This document shows, piece after piece, positions 47,348 through 53,842 of a stretch of DNA of 64,000 nt. A program made the translations under genes and the position numbers. The stretch is taken from positions 15,522 to 79,521 of the IMG/VR virus record IMGVR_UViG_3300035034_001742; one strand, written 5' to 3'. The notes under the pieces were generated by a model, which was not told the DNA's origin, did not search any database, and saw only the letters and a list, made by a program, of their open reading frames with translations. This DNA comes from a virus. The stretch's first letter is position 1. Each line of letters opens with the position of its first letter.

Positions 47348-47657
47348 TTTTCCAACGCCTAAGCGGAACCAAGTTGTGACCACAAATGGCCAGCCATGTC
47401 TCTATTTTTCTTAATTCTCGCCTGGCGCACTTGATTTTTATGACTGCATACGGCTCGTCCACAACCATGCCGCTCAGATCAAACCCTTCTTCAATCTCAG
47501 CAGCCATGGCTTGTATGTTGGGTTGTATTTTTTTCATGTTCAGTATCTTTGTGGGAGCATCTTTACCTTCTATAAAGAACATGAGATCTAACACATAGTA
47601 TCCGGGTATTTGCTTGACAACTATATTGCATTTAATCATGAAAGCCAGTCTTAACAT
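47334..47657 (-). CDS. Hypothetical protein (small-protein array)
   Basis: Overlapping ORF chain. Confidence 0.6.
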   Translation of the reverse strand: MLRLAFMIKCNIVVKQIPGYYVLDLMFFIEGKDAPTKILNMKKIQPNIQAMAAEIEEGFDLSGMVVDEPYAVIKIKCARRELRKIETWLAICGHNLVPLRRWKNEVT

Positions 47658-48087
47658 ATTGTGCCGATATGTATGTAAAACCTTCCAGTCCCATCATGAA
47701 CGCAAACCTTTCTGCTTGATACCAAGTCCCAAACCGAGCCACATAGTAAGCGGTGTACTCTCCATGTCGATTACTGGTCAGCCTGTACTTGACATCCAGT
47801 CTGTTCAGAACGCTGTTTGCTGTGCTGTAAAACACTCGCGCCCGCTCCGTCATTTCGTCATGGTGCATGTAATCCCATATGTGAGGGTACGGCAAGTAAA
47901 CTTGCCAAGTGCCGCGAGTCTTGCTTATGCTGAACCAGTGTTCGCGTATGGCCACCGCTACCCAGTCGGCATCACCTACCACCGAAACGGGGTCACCGCC
48001 AAACATGGTGAACGGTTCAAGACTTACTTGGTATCTTTTGTATCTGTGCAATGTGGTACTCCTTGATTGCGTTTTCGTAATTCTCAC
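47632..48087 (-). CDS. Hypothetical protein (small-protein array)
   Basis: C-terminal ARFGTWYQAERFAFMMGLEGF; start uncertain. Confidence 0.6.
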   Translation of the reverse strand: MRITKTQSRSTTLHRYKRYQVSLEPFTMFGGDPVSVVGDADWVAVAIREHWFSISKTRGTWQVYLPYPHIWDYMHHDEMTERARVFYSTANSVLNRLDVKYRLTSNRHGEYTAYYVARFGTWYQAERFAFMMGLEGFTYISAQYVKTGFHD

Positions 48088-48448
48088 AATGGTATCCTTC
48101 GAATGCCATCAGGGTAACGAACCCTTCCAGTTCCCGCATGTTGTCCGCAGTGAAAGTGATCAGTATTCCCAGCCGCATCATGGCATAGCCCACTATCCCA
48201 CTTAACTTTGTGGGCTCCGGATCCCCACAGCTGATGTCCCAAGTGGTGTCTCGGACACCACTGTCTTGGGCAATATCGATTATGCCCTGACTGGCCTCCT
48301 CCAATGTCGAGAAGTACATCTCGACAACTTGGCCAACACCCGCCCCAGCCAAGTTATCCATCAAGCCGTACCAAGCCACGTTCAACTCAGGCACCACACG
48401 CCAAGCGTCCGCCTGCACCCACTCCAATTGGTATTTGATGTTGATCAT
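48017..48448 (-). CDS. Hypothetical protein (small-protein array)
   Basis: AGGAGA SD; RELEGFVTLMAFEGY motif. Confidence 0.65.
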   Translation of the reverse strand: MINIKYQLEWVQADAWRVVPELNVAWYGLMDNLAGAGVGQVVEMYFSTLEEASQGIIDIAQDSGVRDTTWDISCGDPEPTKLSGIVGYAMMRLGILITFTADNMRELEGFVTLMAFEGYHCENYENAIKEYHIAQIQKIPSKS

Positions 48449-48551
48449 GATCTCTCCTGGGCGGTCTGCGCGTCACAACTGCTAGCACAGCTAGCCGCCG
48501 AAGCGCCTGGTGGCCTGATCACAGCGGTAAACCACGTACTTAAAATGTCGA

Positions 48552-49112
48552 TCATGCCGACAGCGCCTGGTAAGACCGTTTCAAGGAACCGTGTTCCACC
48601 CACCCTGCCAACAGCAAGTATTGTTCCAATTCCTGTTTTCGACGGGGATTCAAGTAAACAGTGAGTGAGTTTCGAGTGAGTTCAAACACCGGTACACAAC
48701 CCACCACCAAGTGTCGGAACTCGGGGAACCGAGCCGGGTCAACCGTGTACACCAACCCACCGTTGCGCCGCACGCGAGTTCGCGTGTAGGTTGTGCTGAA
48801 TTCCGCCGCTGAGTCGCGCATGTTATAGCCTCCGCTGTAAAATGTTTTGAAACGGCACCCGGGCACCATGAGAGTGATGTATGTGATGGCACTCTGCCTG
48901 GCATGCCAGGTGGCCCAATGGGCCACAATTTGAGAGGTGGCACCTCTGTGGGAACACACATGCAACATGCGCCCCACTTGGTCAGCGCCCAGTTCCACTC
49001 GCAAGTCGCTGACCAAGTCCAAGAGCTCACGGTCATCCGGGCGTCCCGTGACGCTCACTCTCAAGCCGTAGTTCAACAGTCGCCCCACGCCGGCTTGATC
49101 CCTCCGGTACAT
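48552..49112 (-). CDS. Hypothetical protein, apparent fusion of two ORFs (internal start at 48821)
   Basis: GGAGG SD before ATG 49112 and before ATG 48821; N-terminal half is a paralog of 49114-49428. Confidence 0.6.
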   Translation of the reverse strand: MYRRDQAGVGRLLNYGLRVSVTGRPDDRELLDLVSDLRVELGADQVGRMLHVCSHRGATSQIVAHWATWHARQSAITYITLMVPGCRFKTFYSGGYNMRDSAAEFSTTYTRTRVRRNGGLVYTVDPARFPEFRHLVVGCVPVFELTRNSLTVYLNPRRKQELEQYLLLAGWVEHGSLKRSYQALSA

Positions 49113-49113
49113 G

Positions 49114-49428
49114 CTAGTATCCTCCGCTGTAAAATTTTCTAAGTGAGCACCCATGCTCTGCCAAGTTGAGATATGCCGCTGCCAGCTCTCGAGCGCGCCA
49201 GGTGGTCCAAGTGGCTTCAAAGACGGCAAAGCCGTCCCGACCATGGTAAGTCACGCGCCCCACAGCTTGAGCCTCAAGGTCCACTCGCATGACGCCAATT
49301 AGAACCATGATCTCACGATATCGAAGTTCGTCCATTTGACCATGGTCATTCATGATGGCCGGCACGCTCACAGCCAAGCTGTAGCCCAGCACGGGCCGAG
49401 CGCCTTCAAGATCCATTGAAGTGATCAC
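49114..49428 (-). CDS. Hypothetical protein (small-protein array)
   Basis: Clear paralog of the N-terminal half of 48552-49112. Confidence 0.7.
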   Translation of the reverse strand: MITSMDLEGARPVLGYSLAVSVPAIMNDHGQMDELRYREIMVLIGVMRVDLEAQAVGRVTYHGRDGFAVFEATWTTWRARELAAAYLNLAEHGCSLRKFYSGGY

Positions 49429-49690
49429 CGTCGGGTATGACCTCTGTGGTCACGTCCACATGCATGAGTGCAATGCTGGTGCGTGCCATTTCAGCCTCCG
49501 ACAGGGTGTTCCACGTTGCCCGCATGTGAACTTGGTCGGGTTTGCACTCATGCCAAGGCATGGAGGTGATGGTTCCACCCATGTCGCGCACTGTTTGAGA
49601 CACTCGATTCATGGCTCGATGGCCTTCGGCATGTGCCACAAACATGGTGGTGGCGGGACGATAATGGATGTACAGGTGTGTTAGTCGCAC
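49406..49690 (-). CDS. Hypothetical protein (first gene of the array)
   Basis: GTG 49690 with AAGGA SD, downstream of the promoter at 49727-49756. Confidence 0.6.
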   Translation of the reverse strand: MRLTHLYIHYRPATTMFVAHAEGHRAMNRVSQTVRDMGGTITSMPWHECKPDQVHMRATWNTLSEAEMARTSIALMHVDVTTEVIPDGDHFNGS

Positions 49691-49936
49691 GTGGTTTCCT
49701 TGATGAACGTGAATGTTATGCAATCTAGTGTACATGGTGCCGACACCGTTTGTCAAGCGAAAAAAACGCGCAAAAAAATTCTTGGGGTGCCATGTTGGAT
49801 GAAGCGTGGACCCAAGAGTGACCCGACCCTTTTCCAACTTGAAAAAAGCGGGGCGCAGTTGGCGGCGGTCAAAAAAAAGGTTGCATTTTGCTGTACAGCA
49901 TGCTTAGCATGTAAATTTTGCACTTTTTATTATGTG

Positions 49937-50011
49937 TTATGCTTTTTAGTTATAAGCAAAACGTGCGCACAAAAAAGCACGCTTTAGCGTGCTTATGCTT
50001 TTTAGTTATAA
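49937..50011 (+). repeat. 19-bp direct repeat TTATGCTTTTTAGTTATAA (49937-49955, 49993-50011)
   Basis: Exact copies flanking the terminator hairpin. Confidence 0.85.
49971..49994 (-). terminator. Intrinsic terminator after the 221-aa ORF
   Basis: AAAAAAGCACGC-ttta-GCGTGCTT; U-tract on the minus strand. Confidence 0.75.
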
Positions 50012-50012
50012 C

Positions 50013-50678
50013 TTATGCAATTAATGCTAAATTGCTTGTTGTTGTTTTGTTTGCTGTTATGCTTAGCACGTTGTGCATGTTTACGCTACGCGTATGCACG
50101 CTGTGCGTTACGTTGTTAGTTACATTGTGTACTGTACTGCTAACATTTAAAAGTGCTTTGCTTGCGCTTGCTGTTAAGTATTGCGCTACTGTATTTTTGC
50201 ACAGTACTTGCAAAGTTTGTGCGCACACATAAAATGTTTTGTTTGCACTGCGCACGTTGCTAAAAGTTAAGTACACAATTTGTAATGCGCTTGTTTTGTT
50301 GCTGTGCGCTATGCTAGCAATGTTTGTGCGCGTAAAGCTAGCTTTGCTTGCTACAAAGTTTTGCACGTTGTTAGCGTTGTTTACAGCAAGCTTGCTTGCA
50401 CTGTTTTTAACTGCATTAGCATACGTTAATGCGCTACTGCTAAACAGTGCATTTACACTGCTTACTTTTAAAATTGTAAGTGCTTTGTGTTGTGCGCTAG
50501 TAGTTACTTTAGTAACTTGCACTACATTTGCAAAAGTAGTAACAGCGTTTGCGTGCATGTTTTGCACAGCATTGCAAGTGTTTTGCGCTACTTGTACGCT
50601 GTTAATTTGTGCATTGTTGTAATGTGTTGCAATTTGTGCAGTAGTGTAATTTACGTTGTTTAATGTAATTGTTTGCAT
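50013..50678 (-). CDS. Hypothetical 221-aa protein lacking D, E, G, P and W
   Basis: Own promoter and terminator; ACACT-ATG start context shared with four neighbouring genes. Confidence 0.75.
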   Translation of the reverse strand: MQTITLNNVNYTTAQIATHYNNAQINSVQVAQNTCNAVQNMHANAVTTFANVVQVTKVTTSAQHKALTILKVSSVNALFSSSALTYANAVKNSASKLAVNNANNVQNFVASKASFTRTNIASIAHSNKTSALQIVYLTFSNVRSANKTFYVCAQTLQVLCKNTVAQYLTASASKALLNVSSTVHNVTNNVTHSVHTRSVNMHNVLSITANKTTTSNLALIA

Positions 50679-50712
50679 AGTGTTTACTACTTTTATTTGT
50701 AACAAGCAGTTA

Positions 50713-51058
50713 TTTGCTTGCTTTGCTTATGTTGTACATAATAGCACGTTGCATGCATAACACAAGCATTATTTGCATTTATTTTAAATTAATTTATGCG
50801 CATTATAATTAATAAAACGCGCATGCGCGTTTAACATAAAAACAGCAACAATGCAAATTAGCGTTATAACTTTTTGTTATAACTTATAACAAAGTAGTAC
50901 TGTACAAATGTTTTTAAACTGTTATAGTATACGCATATTAAAGCAAAGCGCAAAAAGCGCAAAAACAGCAAAAAGCATTAAACGTAAAAAAAGCTAAAAT
51001 AAAGCTTGCAATGTTAAACGCGCAATGTATAATGTACAACATAAGCAAAGCAAGCAAA
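50713..51058. repeat. 27-bp perfect inverted repeat (50713-50739 / 51032-51058) at the starts of two divergent promoters; 18-bp palindrome at 50815-50832
   Basis: TTTGCTTGCTTTGCTTATGTTGTACAT and its reverse complement; AAACGCGCATGCGCGTTT. Confidence 0.9.
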
Positions 51059-51170
51059 ACAGCTTACAGCTAGCGTGCAACACAACGTGTACAGTTACAC
51101 GCTAGCAAACACGCGCAATAATGCGCACACAACGTTGCAACACTAGCAACTACAAAAAAGGCAATACACT

Positions 51171-51422
51171 ATGCAATTTACAAAGTATATGTTTACTCCT
51201 AACTCGCACAACACTGCACTTACGCTTCCGCTAGGCACTCCTATCATGAATGACGACATAGGACTATTCTTGCAAGACGGCCCTTGTCAAGCAGACGTAG
51301 CGCAGTTTATTGTTAATAAACAGGGCCTCATAGAGGGGTTTATTATAGACAATAAAAGTGCGCACTTGCAAACAGTTAAAAACGTGTTTAAAAGTATTAT
51401 AGCTAGCAAAAAGCGTGCTTAA
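51171..51422 (+). CDS. Hypothetical protein
   Basis: AAGG SD, ACACT-ATG, promoter at 51006-51033. Confidence 0.7.
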   Translation: MQFTKYMFTPNSHNTALTLPLGTPIMNDDIGLFLQDGPCQADVAQFIVNKQGLIEGFIIDNKSAHLQTVKNVFKSIIASKKRA

Positions 51423-51498
51423 TTAAATGCAAATAGTGCTTGCAATGTGCAAGCACTGTGTTACAATACACTACACTAACAAAAAGGAAGCAAACACT

Positions 51499-51747
51499 AT
51501 GCGCGAATATTTTACTTTTAAGCAAGACTGCGATGCATACAACTTAGCAGGCATTGCAATGGGCGGCACTGGGTTTTATAGTGACTGCGACAGCATATTT
51601 AACGATGCGCAAACAGACGACGAAGACGAAGACGTTGCAAGCTTTAACTTAACACTAATTGACGGTGTTTATGTAGCAGAAGGGGTGTATATAAAAGACA
51701 GCTACAAGCAAGCACTGTTAACACTGTTTAAGCACATAATAGCGTAA
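51499..51747 (+). CDS. Hypothetical acidic protein
   Basis: AAGGA SD, ACACT-ATG (start moved to MREYF), promoter at 51440-51467. Confidence 0.75.
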   Translation: MREYFTFKQDCDAYNLAGIAMGGTGFYSDCDSIFNDAQTDDEDEDVASFNLTLIDGVYVAEGVYIKDSYKQALLTLFKHIIA

Positions 51748-51789
51748 CATTTAGCAAATAGTGCTTGCACATTGCAAGCACTAACTTTG

Positions 51790-52775
51790 CAATACTTTTG
51801 CGAAGCATTTTTGCGAAACACAGGTTGCGGTACAGGTTTGCGAAACAGGTTTGCTAGGCGTGGTACAGGGGCAAGCGCAACAGGCCGGACAGTATTCCAA
51901 AACCAAGAACCAAAAACAAAAAACCAAAAACAAGGTTGTGTTTTAGAATTACTTTTAGTGCAACAAGTTTCAAGTAAACAATTAGGATTGGCGTGTGGTT
52001 TCCGCAATCAGAGAACAGGAGTAGTGACCCAGACTTTGTTATCCTAAAATGTTATCACAAGCGGCGGTTGCTTTCATGGTGTGGCAAACGTGGCTTGTGT
52101 TTTATTCTACTTGCTTGGTTTTGTTAACCAAGCGTCAACGGCAGTTCGCACGCGCTCTTTTCGCAAGACAGGAACGGTAGCGAACTGCTTTTTTTTGGGT
52201 CCACGATCTGGCCTGCCATGTTGTCCACCTGTGCCGTTTTGGTTTACACTTCTGTCCCGCCCATCCTCGCACCACGATCTGGCCTGCCATTCTGGTTACT
52301 GGTTGGGGTTACTGGTAACGCCTGTCCAGTCGCCGTCTAAGACGGGCATCCGCCTGTGCCGTTTGGCTGTGCCGTTCTGCTTTCCACTTCTGCCTCGCGC
52401 GTTTGGAATACTAACGGCGGCACAGGCGTTTGCCTTGCCCGTTTGTCTGCCGCTGTGTGTCTGTGTGCTTGTGTGCTGTGCGGTATCAACCTCCTGACCC
52501 AAGTGTAAGCTGATCAAGAGATTGTGGTACACAAGCTGATTGCGAGTGTTACCAGAACCACACCCACCGCTCGTCTCTCAAGGCGCCCGCGTCTATAGGC
52601 AAATTTTGGAGACAACTCTGCGAAATTTCTGTGAGGTTTTGGTTTGAAGATCGCAACTGGAATTTTGCGAAGGTGAATCTGGTGCGAGGATCTGGTCCCG
52701 GCAAGTGGACAGAAAGAGGTACCACTGGGAAGTTTTAAATGAGCGAGGCCCCTTCCCGGAGGTGGGGTTTGTTAC
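51790..52775 (-). ncRNA. Candidate large structured ncRNA or structured cis-element (boundaries approximate)
   Basis: Promoter at 52780-52808 with no RBS-led ORF downstream; several long-range inverted repeats and a 19-bp direct repeat. Confidence 0.4.
52141..52196 (+). terminator. Hairpin GCAGTTCGC...GCGAACTGC followed by T8
   Basis: 9-bp stem with a large structured loop and a T-tract. Confidence 0.45.
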
Positions 52776-52823
52776 TATAATTGTAACACAATGGATGCCT
52801 GGTTGCAACCTTTTTTAAACGGG

Positions 52824-52851
52824 AAAAAACGCTTGCAAGCGCAAGCGTTTT
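52824..52851 (-). terminator. Intrinsic terminator
   Basis: AAAAAACGCTTGC-aagc-GCAAGCGTTTT after the stop at 52855. Confidence 0.8.
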
Positions 52852-52854
52852 GTG

Positions 52855-53028
52855 TTAGTGACTGGCTTTAATAACTATTCTATTTTTAACTATTATGTTG
52901 ACAAGCTTGCTTTTATATGTTGCAGTGTAGTGCATCTCGTCGCCGTCGCCACAGCGCATTTTGTTTGTGTAAACTAAATTGCTGTAGTTTGCTAAGTTTT
53001 TACGTGTTGCTGTTTTAGTTGCTTGCAT
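52855..53028 (-). CDS. Hypothetical protein (57 aa)
   Basis: GGA SD, ACACT-ATG, own promoter; start moved to MQATK. Confidence 0.65.
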   Translation of the reverse strand: MQATKTATRKNLANYSNLVYTNKMRCGDGDEMHYTATYKSKLVNIIVKNRIVIKASH

Positions 53029-53112
53029 AGTGTTTGCATCCGTTTTGTTAATGTGCGTACAGTATAGCACAATGCTTGCAATGTGCAAGCATTGTTTGCA
53101 TTTTATTTTAAA

Positions 53113-53388
53113 TTAATACACTAGCACAAGTCCCTCTTCTTCTAGTTCTTCGTATAGCTCTTCCCACAGCATAGTGTCAAGCTCTAGTTTTATGCACGTT
53201 TTAATGTCGTCAGCGTTAATGTCGCCGCTGTTAACTGTTACAATGCTGTCTTCTAGCTCTACGTCTGCGTTAGCAGTGTTTACAAGCATGCTGTACGTTT
53301 GTAGCAGTGTAATGCCGTCTTCAATAAACCCGTTTGTAATGTTAGCTTGCGCTTTGTTAAAAACTGTTTGTAATGTTATTTGTAACAT
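53113..53388 (-). CDS. Hypothetical acidic protein
   Basis: GGGA SD, ACACT-ATG, own promoter; acidic C-terminus. Confidence 0.7.
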   Translation of the reverse strand: MLQITLQTVFNKAQANITNGFIEDGITLLQTYSMLVNTANADVELEDSIVTVNSGDINADDIKTCIKLELDTMLWEELYEELEEEGLVLVY

Positions 53389-53490
53389 AGTGTGCATCCC
53401 GTTTTGTATAACTGTTTAAGTGTGTGTAGTGTAACACACTGTTAGCGCATTGCAAGCTTTAATTTGCTTGCTAGCTAGTTAATGCGTTTT

Positions 53491-53813
53491 GCTTGTTTGC
53501 TTTAACTTGTGTATATAATAGCACGTTGCTACTGTATTGCAAGCATTATTTGCATTTATTTTTTAAACGAATACTTGCTAATGAACTTAGGAATTTAATG
53601 TCCATGTTAGCAATTTGTTGCAAAAAAGTGTTGTCAGCAGTGTCAAGCACATTATTTACAAAAATAGTGTCCTCTGCGCTCAGTGTCGTTTTTGCGCCCA
53701 TGTTCTTGCGTAGCCAATTAGCCTTTTGTGTTAGTGTCATGTTGTTCTCGCTTGTTTGCTTTAACTTGTGTGTATAATAGCACGTTGCTACTGTATTGCA
53801 AGCACTATTTGCA
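53491..53813 (+). repeat. 64-bp direct repeat (53491-53554 / 53750-53813; 62/64 identical) containing a promoter
   Basis: Direct comparison; flanks ORF 53546-53740. Confidence 0.9.
53546..53740 (-). CDS. Hypothetical protein (64 aa)
   Basis: Own promoter; leader AACAAGCGAGAACAAC shared with the gene starting at 54180. Confidence 0.65.
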   Translation of the reverse strand: MTLTQKANWLRKNMGAKTTLSAEDTIFVNNVLDTADNTFLQQIANMDIKFLSSLASIRLKNKCK

Positions 53814-53842
53814 AAAAGAATAGAATTATTTTTACTGGAATT

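Follow-up and report, generated by a model that had tools for sequence, protein, structure and literature searches.

The DNA analyzed here, referred to as the window, is a stretch of 64,000 nucleotides (nt) comprising bases 15522 to 79521 of a 79.5-kb linear viral contig (IMG/VR record IMGVR_UViG_3300035034_001742) that is estimated to be 22% complete. The runs containing the stretch are lake-water metagenomes. The baseplate hub and wedge proteins of the window matched T4-like PHROGs, and the closest cultured phages were the jumbo myoviruses PA5oct, SCTP-2 and Atu_ph07 and the Rak2-like phages, with about 43% identity in the wedge protein. The subject of this study is an island at 49880-51159 that contains no GA, GG, TC or CC on either strand, together with the transcription units beside it. 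Since the surroundings of the island are made of repeated sigma70-type promoters (TTGCAA-16-(TGn)TATTAT), short open reading frames (ORFs) and hairpin terminators, the region around it was assigned as the early region of the phage. The late genes of the window use Shine-Dalgarno (SD) sequences. In what follows, GR stands for GA or GG and YC for TC or CC. The two were counted separately, and the absence of GR from the plus strand equals the absence of YC from the minus strand.

The island contains one ORF of 221 amino acids (aa) on the minus strand (50013-50678), which encodes no Asp, Glu, Gly, Pro or Trp and is not preceded by an SD sequence. Its start context is AAGTAGTAAACACT-ATG, compared with AAGGAAGCAAACACT-ATG in the sister units; AAACACT-ATG is common to the island ORF and its neighbors, and the SD sequence AAGGAAG is replaced by AAGTAGT in the island ORF. 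The predicted promoter of the ORF (50738-50777, minus strand) is a copy of an early-promoter repeat, family D1, with further copies at 53037, 53491 and 53750. It consists of an A/T-rich upstream part, a -35 element TTGTGT (50765-50760), a 16-nt spacer ending in TGC, and a -10 element TATTAT (50743-50738). Just after the ORF is a hairpin resembling a bidirectional intrinsic terminator (49965-50005), with an A-run, an 8-bp stem at 49975-49994, and a T-run. A divergent promoter, TTGCAA-16-TATAAT, is predicted on the plus strand at 51006-51033 within repeat I3, a 97% inverted copy of 50713-50743, and the leader downstream of it lacks all four dinucleotides as far as the SD sequence at 51160. Between the two divergent promoters, the hairpin AAACGCGCATGCGCGTTT is followed by a T-rich tail on the minus strand (50815-50832). 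The 8-bp palindrome GTTATAAC or a near copy of it also occurs in the island as direct pairs with TTTTT spacing, at 50864-50887, 49937-49960 and 49993-50016. These pairs lie beside the hairpins and look like an operator for a dimeric regulator.

The island is bounded by GG at 49879 and GG at 51160. Between these two positions the four dinucleotides were observed 0 times, compared with 228 expected from the base composition of the island itself. An earlier note on this DNA had described such an island and had placed the first break of the rule at the SD sequence of the next gene. Both statements were confirmed, as the rule first breaks at the weak SD sequence (AAAGG) of the ORF starting at 51171, and it spans the whole unit, including the promoters, leader, ORF and terminator. 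Using the genome-wide density of 0.18 forbidden steps per position, the probability of the run was about 1e-111 per start, which ruled out chance as the cause. A dinucleotide scan of the 79.5-kb contig, of the kind proposed in the earlier note, found no free run longer than 65 nt when the early region was excluded, and GR and YC were only mildly low in the genome as a whole (observed/expected, 0.81-0.91). An assembly artefact was ruled out by contigs of the independent lake-water runs X3, X5 and X7, which matched parts of the island at 99 to 100% identity.

Amino acid composition alone did not produce the rule either. When the island protein was kept fixed and re-encoded with synonymous codons at the codon usage of the phage, 71 forbidden steps were obtained (minimum of 45 in 5000 trials), compared with 0 observed. 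Within the ORF, the last base before each of the 30 codons starting with C is a purine, and a purine never follows any of the 22 codons that end in G. A diverged strain (run X6) differed from the island by 30 listed substitutions, none of which created a forbidden step; random placement of the same substitutions gave 9.8 forbidden steps, with a minimum of 4 in 2000 trials. The constraint therefore acts on the nucleic acid, tolerates no exceptions and is kept by selection. It is also specific to these four dinucleotides: eight other dinucleotide pairs of similar frequency had no free run of 200 nt or more in a 154-kb relative, and 183 of the 200 significant single-dinucleotide-free runs over all fetched loci were free of TC, CC, GA or GG. 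The number of 4-bp palindromes made of allowed steps in the island was 134, compared with 140 expected from its own dinucleotides, and 6-bp palindromes (46, compared with 21 at the genome rate) were about twice as frequent as in the genome. These counts argued against general restriction-site avoidance.

We then found that the neighboring early units follow the same rule on one strand. Units with no YC on the message strand and with GR present were assigned to class A, and units purged on both strands were assigned to class B. A class A unit on the plus strand (51329-51885), with no TC or CC and normal GR on its message strand, contains a promoter at 51440-51467, the SD sequence AAGGA, an acidic 82-aa ORF at 51499-51747, and a terminator-like hairpin at 51785-51805. 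By re-encoding, 11 YC were expected in this ORF and 0 were seen. Class A units on the minus strand occupy 52901-53569, where GR is absent from the plus strand and YC is hence absent from the message strand. They comprise a promoter at 53542-53515 with an acidic 94-aa ORF at 53397-53113, and a second promoter copy near 53098-53070 with a 57-aa ORF at 53028-52855. A further minus-strand class A unit (53592-53818) has a promoter at 53801-53774 and a 64-aa ORF at 53740-53546, the 3' end of which lies outside the free run. In all three stretches, the message strand is the YC-free strand. The basic rule is the absence of YC from the message strand, and the island is its two-strand extreme. The symmetric two-strand rule described in the earlier note is accordingly correct for the island itself and does not extend to the neighboring units, which are purged on one strand. 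The strand-specific form is incompatible with avoidance of CRISPR protospacer-adjacent motifs (PAMs), and this candidate was rejected for that reason.

The early ORF at 51171-51422 is a mosaic. Its segment 51197-51328 has normal TC, CC, GA and GG and four Pro codons, and its leader and 3' half are YC-free. This ORF is possibly a recombination patch or a relaxed gene.

The rule was next examined in 7 viral and 48 metagenomic related loci, and 44 distinct genes of the island family were classified by strand. Twenty-four of them were free of the forbidden steps on both strands and 7 were depleted on both strands. Another 7 were YC-free on the message strand with GR present, 1 was free of CC and GG only, and 5 were normal; no gene was free of GR only (0 of 44). 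The relatives thus share the rule instead of showing normal dinucleotide use at this locus. Relative to genome rates, the residual frequencies in the family genes were about 0.05 for TC, 0.07 for CC, 0.12 for GG and 0.17 for GA. The lower residuals of TC and CC, together with the class counts, show that the primary constraint is on message-strand YC, with GR coming second. Arrays of small acidic early genes in the relatives, up to 2-3 kb in length, also lacked YC on one strand only, the one with the long ORFs. The encoded proteins contain Asp, Glu and Gly but no Pro.

Purging is confined to a small part of these genomes. In the 154-kb relative, free runs of at least 200 nt were limited to a 1.75-kb island and one 510-nt gene, so that about 2.3 kb is purged. 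The first 50 kb of PA5oct, an early region used as a negative control, had no free run longer than 187 nt, which indicated that the trait is not general to this phage group; the 39-kb terminal repeat of PA5oct is full of small early genes and has no long free runs.

The longest purged segment was found in the related locus L082, which carries an 8.4-kb tandem array of promoter-ORF-terminator cassettes. Each cassette has TTGCAT-17-TATAAT preceded by an A/T-rich part, then a leader hairpin and an ORF of about 100 aa, and closes with a terminator made of an A-run, a hairpin and a T-run. The first 3.3 kb of the array are class A, with a YC-free message strand, GGAG as the SD sequence and acidic proteins, and the next 5 kb are class B, free on both strands and without SD sequences. 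The forbidden steps that the array does contain are nearly all confined to a conserved CCCC/GGGG element, which separates the terminator of one cassette from the promoter of the following one. The purge tracks the transcription units. Antisense promoters were not enriched in the L082 array, and antisense transcription as the cause of the two-strand form was rejected, weakly, on that basis. The spacer element (GGGTT..GCGYGCCCC..GGCCCCGCTGC..TGGGGCAC) recurs about every 600 nt at 4550-9560 of L082, in an array otherwise free of GG and CC, and the sequence GGGGCGCAG, which is similar to it, is present in the window just to the left of the island, at about 49842.

L059, a contig of 2.2 kb that includes a family member, has a different set of forbidden steps. 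In 2.1 kb spanning three genes, it contains 0 CC and 2 GG, with GA and TC at normal frequency. Lineages therefore differ in what is forbidden, and the set of L059 is again closed under reverse complement. Several relatives also have a second, non-homologous ORF of about 115 aa without GR or YC (starting with MQTQQQ.. or MQKKPQ..) just upstream of the family gene, as at L007 9312-9659, L009 9122-9472 and L011 9188-9535; the window has no counterpart of it.

The protein encoded by the island is limited to 15 amino acids because its unit is free of GA, GG, TC and CC. The five missing residues together make up 26% of the late proteins. Compared with its nearest relative, the 90%-identical L014, the island ORF has a proportion of synonymous differences (pS) of 0.38 and a ratio of nonsynonymous to synonymous proportions (pN/pS) of 0.157; at this level of synonymous divergence the rule is still kept. 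AlphaFold2 with the family alignment predicted an alpha/beta fold with a predicted local distance difference test (pLDDT) score of 94 and a predicted template modeling (pTM) score of 0.89. The low pN/pS and the high pLDDT indicated that the 221-aa ORF is a real gene. Indexing by words found 50 homologues, and a profile search extended the family to at least 192 clusters at 50% identity. The family was found in phages only: 185,579 prokaryote species genomes contained no relative, and cultured phages had no DNA or protein match to the island or its family.

Composition was normal in 82 of 149 family clusters among the matches listed, and since most clusters are normal, the alphabet without Asp, Glu, Gly, Pro and Trp is the derived state. 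Where Asp is conserved in the normal members, the restricted members carry Asn in 34 of 42 cases, and where Pro is conserved they carry Ala in 14 of 14. Columns with conserved Trp, Glu and Gly have Tyr, Thr and Asn/Lys/Ser, respectively. The rule overrides protein conservation. The genes next to the island are not conserved in the relatives, except in L014; in an early region that otherwise varies greatly, only the family gene is constant.

Other parts of the window were also inspected. Directly beside the island, 47600-49880 is a GC-rich block (53-58% G+C, compared with 42% in the whole window) with five co-oriented, partly overlapping ORFs on the minus strand. Its GR/YC density is 0.25-0.29, above that of the genome, and it contains a 226-nt run without TA and a 152-nt run without AT. 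The block had no Pfam match and no homologue in the related loci, and it may be a recent acquisition. Between the purged early units, 51800-52850 is about 1 kb without a credible ORF on either strand, with a G+C content of up to 60% and direct repeats starting with CTGTGCCGTT at 52229, 52354, 52367 and 52629. These repeats had no Rfam match, as was true of the entire 47-56 kb part of the window, and the segment could be a non-coding RNA or a protein-binding array. Further away, a 20-kb block at 24664-45310 encodes several radical-SAM proteins, a homologue of UDP-glucose dehydrogenase and glycosyltransferases, and could in principle modify DNA instead of the virion.

Any explanation has to account for six features: a word of only 2 nt, a zero tolerance that displaces conserved residues, the primacy of the message strand, a second forbidden class that is the exact reverse complement of the first, the restriction to few early transcription units, and the lineage-specific word sets. 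The explanation we favor, though tentatively, is that the island may be a "stealth" immediate-early cassette. Some trans-acting component of the infected cell would recognize 5'-YC (TC or CC) wherever nucleic acid is single-stranded, and the cassette would escape it. Each occurrence would be costly, and selection would strip YC from those parts of the few first-expressed units that become single-stranded. In class A units, a message strand without YC would protect the mRNA and the displaced non-template strand. In class B units, the template strand would lack YC too, which equals the absence of GR from the message, so that the gene would be protected at the levels of both transcription and translation. 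The price would be paid in protein, through the loss of Asp, Glu, Gly, Pro and Trp, and in the loss of the SD sequence.

If one motif is read on single strands, the two forbidden classes become exact reverse complements and no antisense transcription is needed. A single YC word read in this manner would account for all six features, the template-strand step being presumed. The word sets that vary between lineages, as in L059, are what a polymorphic reader would produce, and the purging of so little of the 154-kb relative fits a small gene set working before or during an attack. The purged units would encode counter-defence or take-over proteins needed while the defence enzyme is active.

Candidate readers would include nucleic-acid ADP-ribosyltransferases of the CmdT, DarT or pierisin type, an RNase, or cytosine deaminases, which on single strands typically prefer TC or CC contexts. 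By analogy with such enzymes, the reader would most likely be a host defence enzyme of one of the polymorphic kinds, acting on single strands and specific for a short motif. CmdT ADP-ribosylates A in GA of single-stranded RNA and, more weakly, single-stranded DNA (PMC11618068). DarT2 reads TNTC in single-stranded DNA and DarT1 reads G (PMC11543638), and ScARP and Scabin modify G and C in single-stranded DNA and RNA (PMC12945103). With 0 GA and 0 TC on either strand, the island lacks the motifs of CmdT and DarT2; the class A mRNAs still carry GA.

Several observations weigh against this explanation. We know of no enzyme with YC specificity that acts as an anti-phage system. We infer the template-strand part in order to explain the reverse-complement symmetry, and likewise the existence and identity of the trans-acting reader and the functions of the proteins. 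No ADP-ribosylhydrolase (Macro or NADAR) or dCMP-deaminase domain was found in five related fragments, which total 520 kb and are incomplete. Searches of Pfam and PHROG assigned no family to the island protein, to its relatives of normal composition or to the class A proteins. For the island protein, the PDB gave no sequence match and no Foldseek match, BFVD gave only uncharacterized proteins of uncultured phages, and the ESM Atlas gave no named cluster. The early ORF at 51171-51422 has normal YC and GR in its 5' half. The 230 nt between the divergent promoters (50778-51005) are purged as well, yet they are not obviously transcribed, and the transcript ends and the absence of antisense RNA are predictions from consensus scans only.

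The most serious alternative is evasion of Rho, although we consider it rather unlikely. Nascent transcripts without YC could not load Rho, and the first phage transcripts would thereby escape the Rho-dependent silencing of foreign DNA; the transcripts exposed would be those made before ribosome coupling or without any SD sequence. The primary binding site clefts of Rho bind 5'-YC, which is an exact match of specificity, and no other reader of this dinucleotide on bacterial RNA is documented (PMC12360218; PMC5314796). Phage early transcripts are known Rho substrates (PMC12360218), and a rut site on nascent RNA belongs to the same dinucleotide class as the rule in its primary and most widespread form, no YC on the message strand. 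The island ORF and the three neighboring units have 0 TC or CC on that strand, the units end in intrinsic terminators, and the class B units, having no SD sequence, would be the most exposed. The related phage PA5oct is reported to rely on host RNA polymerase (PMC7318152). In VIA-align comparisons, the island protein had weak matches only to Sm-like, WYL and YaeO/Rof barrels (Z of 5.5 or less, below the level of kinship), and among these generic barrels is the Sm-like Rho inhibitor YaeO/Rof (Z of 5.1), a match below the level of a meaningful shared fold.

However, Rho requires several YC within about 80 nt, and a single YC per kb should therefore cost almost nothing; yet conserved prolines have been given up. 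Evasion of Rho also leaves the missing GR of the island and of 24 of the 44 relatives unexplained, as well as the CC/GG variant L059, in which TC is abundant. The exact reverse complement would be a coincidence, and the missing GR would need a second, unrelated cause at the RNA level: SD-like sequences may be avoided, or a RegB-like nuclease cutting GGAG or a CmdT-like enzyme reading GA may be evaded. The known anti-Rho strategies of phages (Psu, lambda N and Q, and Rof) are trans-acting proteins or RNA elements, not the removal of a dinucleotide (PMC12360218). Rho is nevertheless a serious candidate for the class A rule.

Somewhat less probable in our view is the proposal of the earlier note that the phage modifies GR/YC across its genome and that this segment is exempt. 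Once the DNA had been replicated, the phage would mark it at the G of GR or the C of YC, and the units described here would have to stay unmarked. The template strand at minimum would have to be clean for the unmodified host polymerase that transcribes the incoming genome, and the island would be the unit in which both strands have to be clean. Short-motif modifications of phage DNA do exist: 7-deazaguanine is inserted at GA and GGC in phage CAjan, a GpC methylase acts together with a TET enzyme, and thymidine is hypermodified in a context-dependent manner. The first two are chemistries with a 2- to 3-nt context on phage DNA, and their motifs overlap with the rule in GA and GG. If G in GR is marked, a template free of GR is the same as the observed message strand free of YC. 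The motif is permitted in non-transcribed spacers, the motif sets differ between phages, as in L059, and the 20-kb block of radical-SAM proteins and glycosyltransferases is present in the window.

The five related fragments, each 16-45% complete, contained no TGT/DpdA (PF01702), C5-methyltransferase (PF00145) or dCMP-deaminase domain. Only about 2 kb of the 154-kb relative is purged, and dozens of other early and middle genes that are transcribed from the parental genome have the motif at normal density. The mark therefore cannot generally block transcription, and an exemption fails to explain why most other early genes retain the motif. The genome-wide depletion of GR and YC is only mild as well. 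Unlike modification of the CAjan type, the rule of the island is tied to transcription units and to a strand, and we know of no unmodified island described for phages with that type of modification or with a GpC methylase and TET. The earlier note had weighed a purge of host-defence targets against exemption from modification. The purge is the direction we favor and the better supported of the two; exemption has no gene-level support in these fragments.

An improbable alternative is self-immunity, in which an early nuclease or modifier of the phage itself would attack host RNA or DNA at YC or GR, and the phage genes co-expressed with it would lack the target. The sequence logic is the same as that of a host reader, and phage RNases that influence early expression have a precedent in RegB of phage T4, which cleaves early mRNAs at GGAG. 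The constancy of the purged family gene within a highly variable early region also fits this proposal. However, such an enzyme would also attack the middle and late genes of the phage, in which the motif has its normal density, we can name no candidate for it, and many family members in other phages have normal composition.

A mutational footprint without selection is very improbable. A cytosine deaminase specific for YC would convert YC to YT in strongly transcribed units, and GR to AR on the other strand. TC and CC are classic contexts of deaminases that act on single strands, and the strand asymmetry tracks the non-template strand. The island nevertheless keeps a G+C content of 36%, its GC dinucleotides reach 3.3 times the expected frequency, and neither CT (0.89 of expectation) nor AG (0.87) is in excess. 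The replacements in the protein are conservative and several need transversions (Pro to Ala in 14 of 14 cases; Glu to Gln or Thr), the ORFs remain open under strong purifying selection, and diverged strains differ by many substitution types, none of which creates a forbidden step. Pure hypermutation as the sole cause was largely refuted by these results. It is just as improbable that the SD sequence and the CCCC/GGGG spacer hairpins are the sole functional signals and that the rest is purged of spurious copies of them, as might be read from the clustering of forbidden steps in the spacer element and SD sequences of L082 and from the first break of the window's rule at an SD sequence, since avoiding a signal of 4-8 nt requires neither the loss of every GA, TC, GG and CC nor that of five amino acids, and the island contains no such element.

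Evasion of a single-strand reader by a purged cassette can be compared with three known systems. The first-step-transfer (pre-early) DNA of phage T5, as Davison and Brunel are said to have reported in 1979, has no EcoRI sites. In T5 as in the island, a small first-expressed segment is free of a host target that the rest of the genome carries, and the products of the T5 segment afterwards protect the remaining genome. The island differs from T5 and from restriction avoidance in that its word is 2 nt instead of 6, its basic form is strand-specific, palindromes are not avoided and proteins are rewritten; for the terminal position seen in T5, the island is known here from a linear fragment of a partial genome.

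The nearest published analogue that we found is the immediate-early 1 gene of human cytomegalovirus, in which CpG suppression evades the RNA-binding factor ZAP (PMC7498042). There too a dinucleotide is depleted locally in an immediate-early transcript against a host factor that reads RNA (PMC7498042), although for the island the reader is a proposal. Cytomegalovirus is a eukaryotic virus, and its suppression is partial, concerns one dinucleotide and has a known reader (PMC7498042), whereas the removal in the island is complete, concerns two to four dinucleotides and includes the template strand.

The third comparison is with CmdTAC, DarTG and the pierisin-type enzymes, which act only on single-stranded RNA or DNA, at one base in a context of 2-4 nt (PMC11618068, PMC11543638, PMC12945103). 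A transcript or template without the motif of such an enzyme would be immune to it. No member of these groups with YC specificity is known to us, and GA, the motif of CmdT, is the least strictly avoided of the four steps in the family genes. Our literature searches found no publication that describes purged phage cassettes of this kind, and the statement in the earlier note that no equivalent had been described holds for the literature searched.

To our knowledge, this would be the most extreme natural case of target avoidance. A 2-nt word has been fully removed over 1.3 kb in the window and up to 8 kb in a relative, at the cost of five amino acids and the ribosome-binding site, yet the protein is predicted to fold with confidence. 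The family is also a natural experiment in a reduced alphabet: a conserved alpha/beta fold now does without Asp, Glu, Gly, Pro and Trp, and homologues of normal composition are available for comparison. The purged units mark a small set of early proteins as likely key counter-defence or take-over functions. They also suggest that freshwater bacteria may have a factor recognizing TC/CC on single strands, and the approach provides a purely sequence-based route to finding such factors and their specificities. As a broader possibility, to which we give less credence than to the explanation of the island itself, many phages may carry "stealth genes" that evade an undescribed class of host defence enzymes, which would modify or cut single-stranded RNA, and DNA in transcription bubbles, at a dinucleotide, here 5'-YC. 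The motif purged from a phage genome would in that case read out the specificity of the host enzyme, and the proteins of the purged units would be the matching counter-defences.

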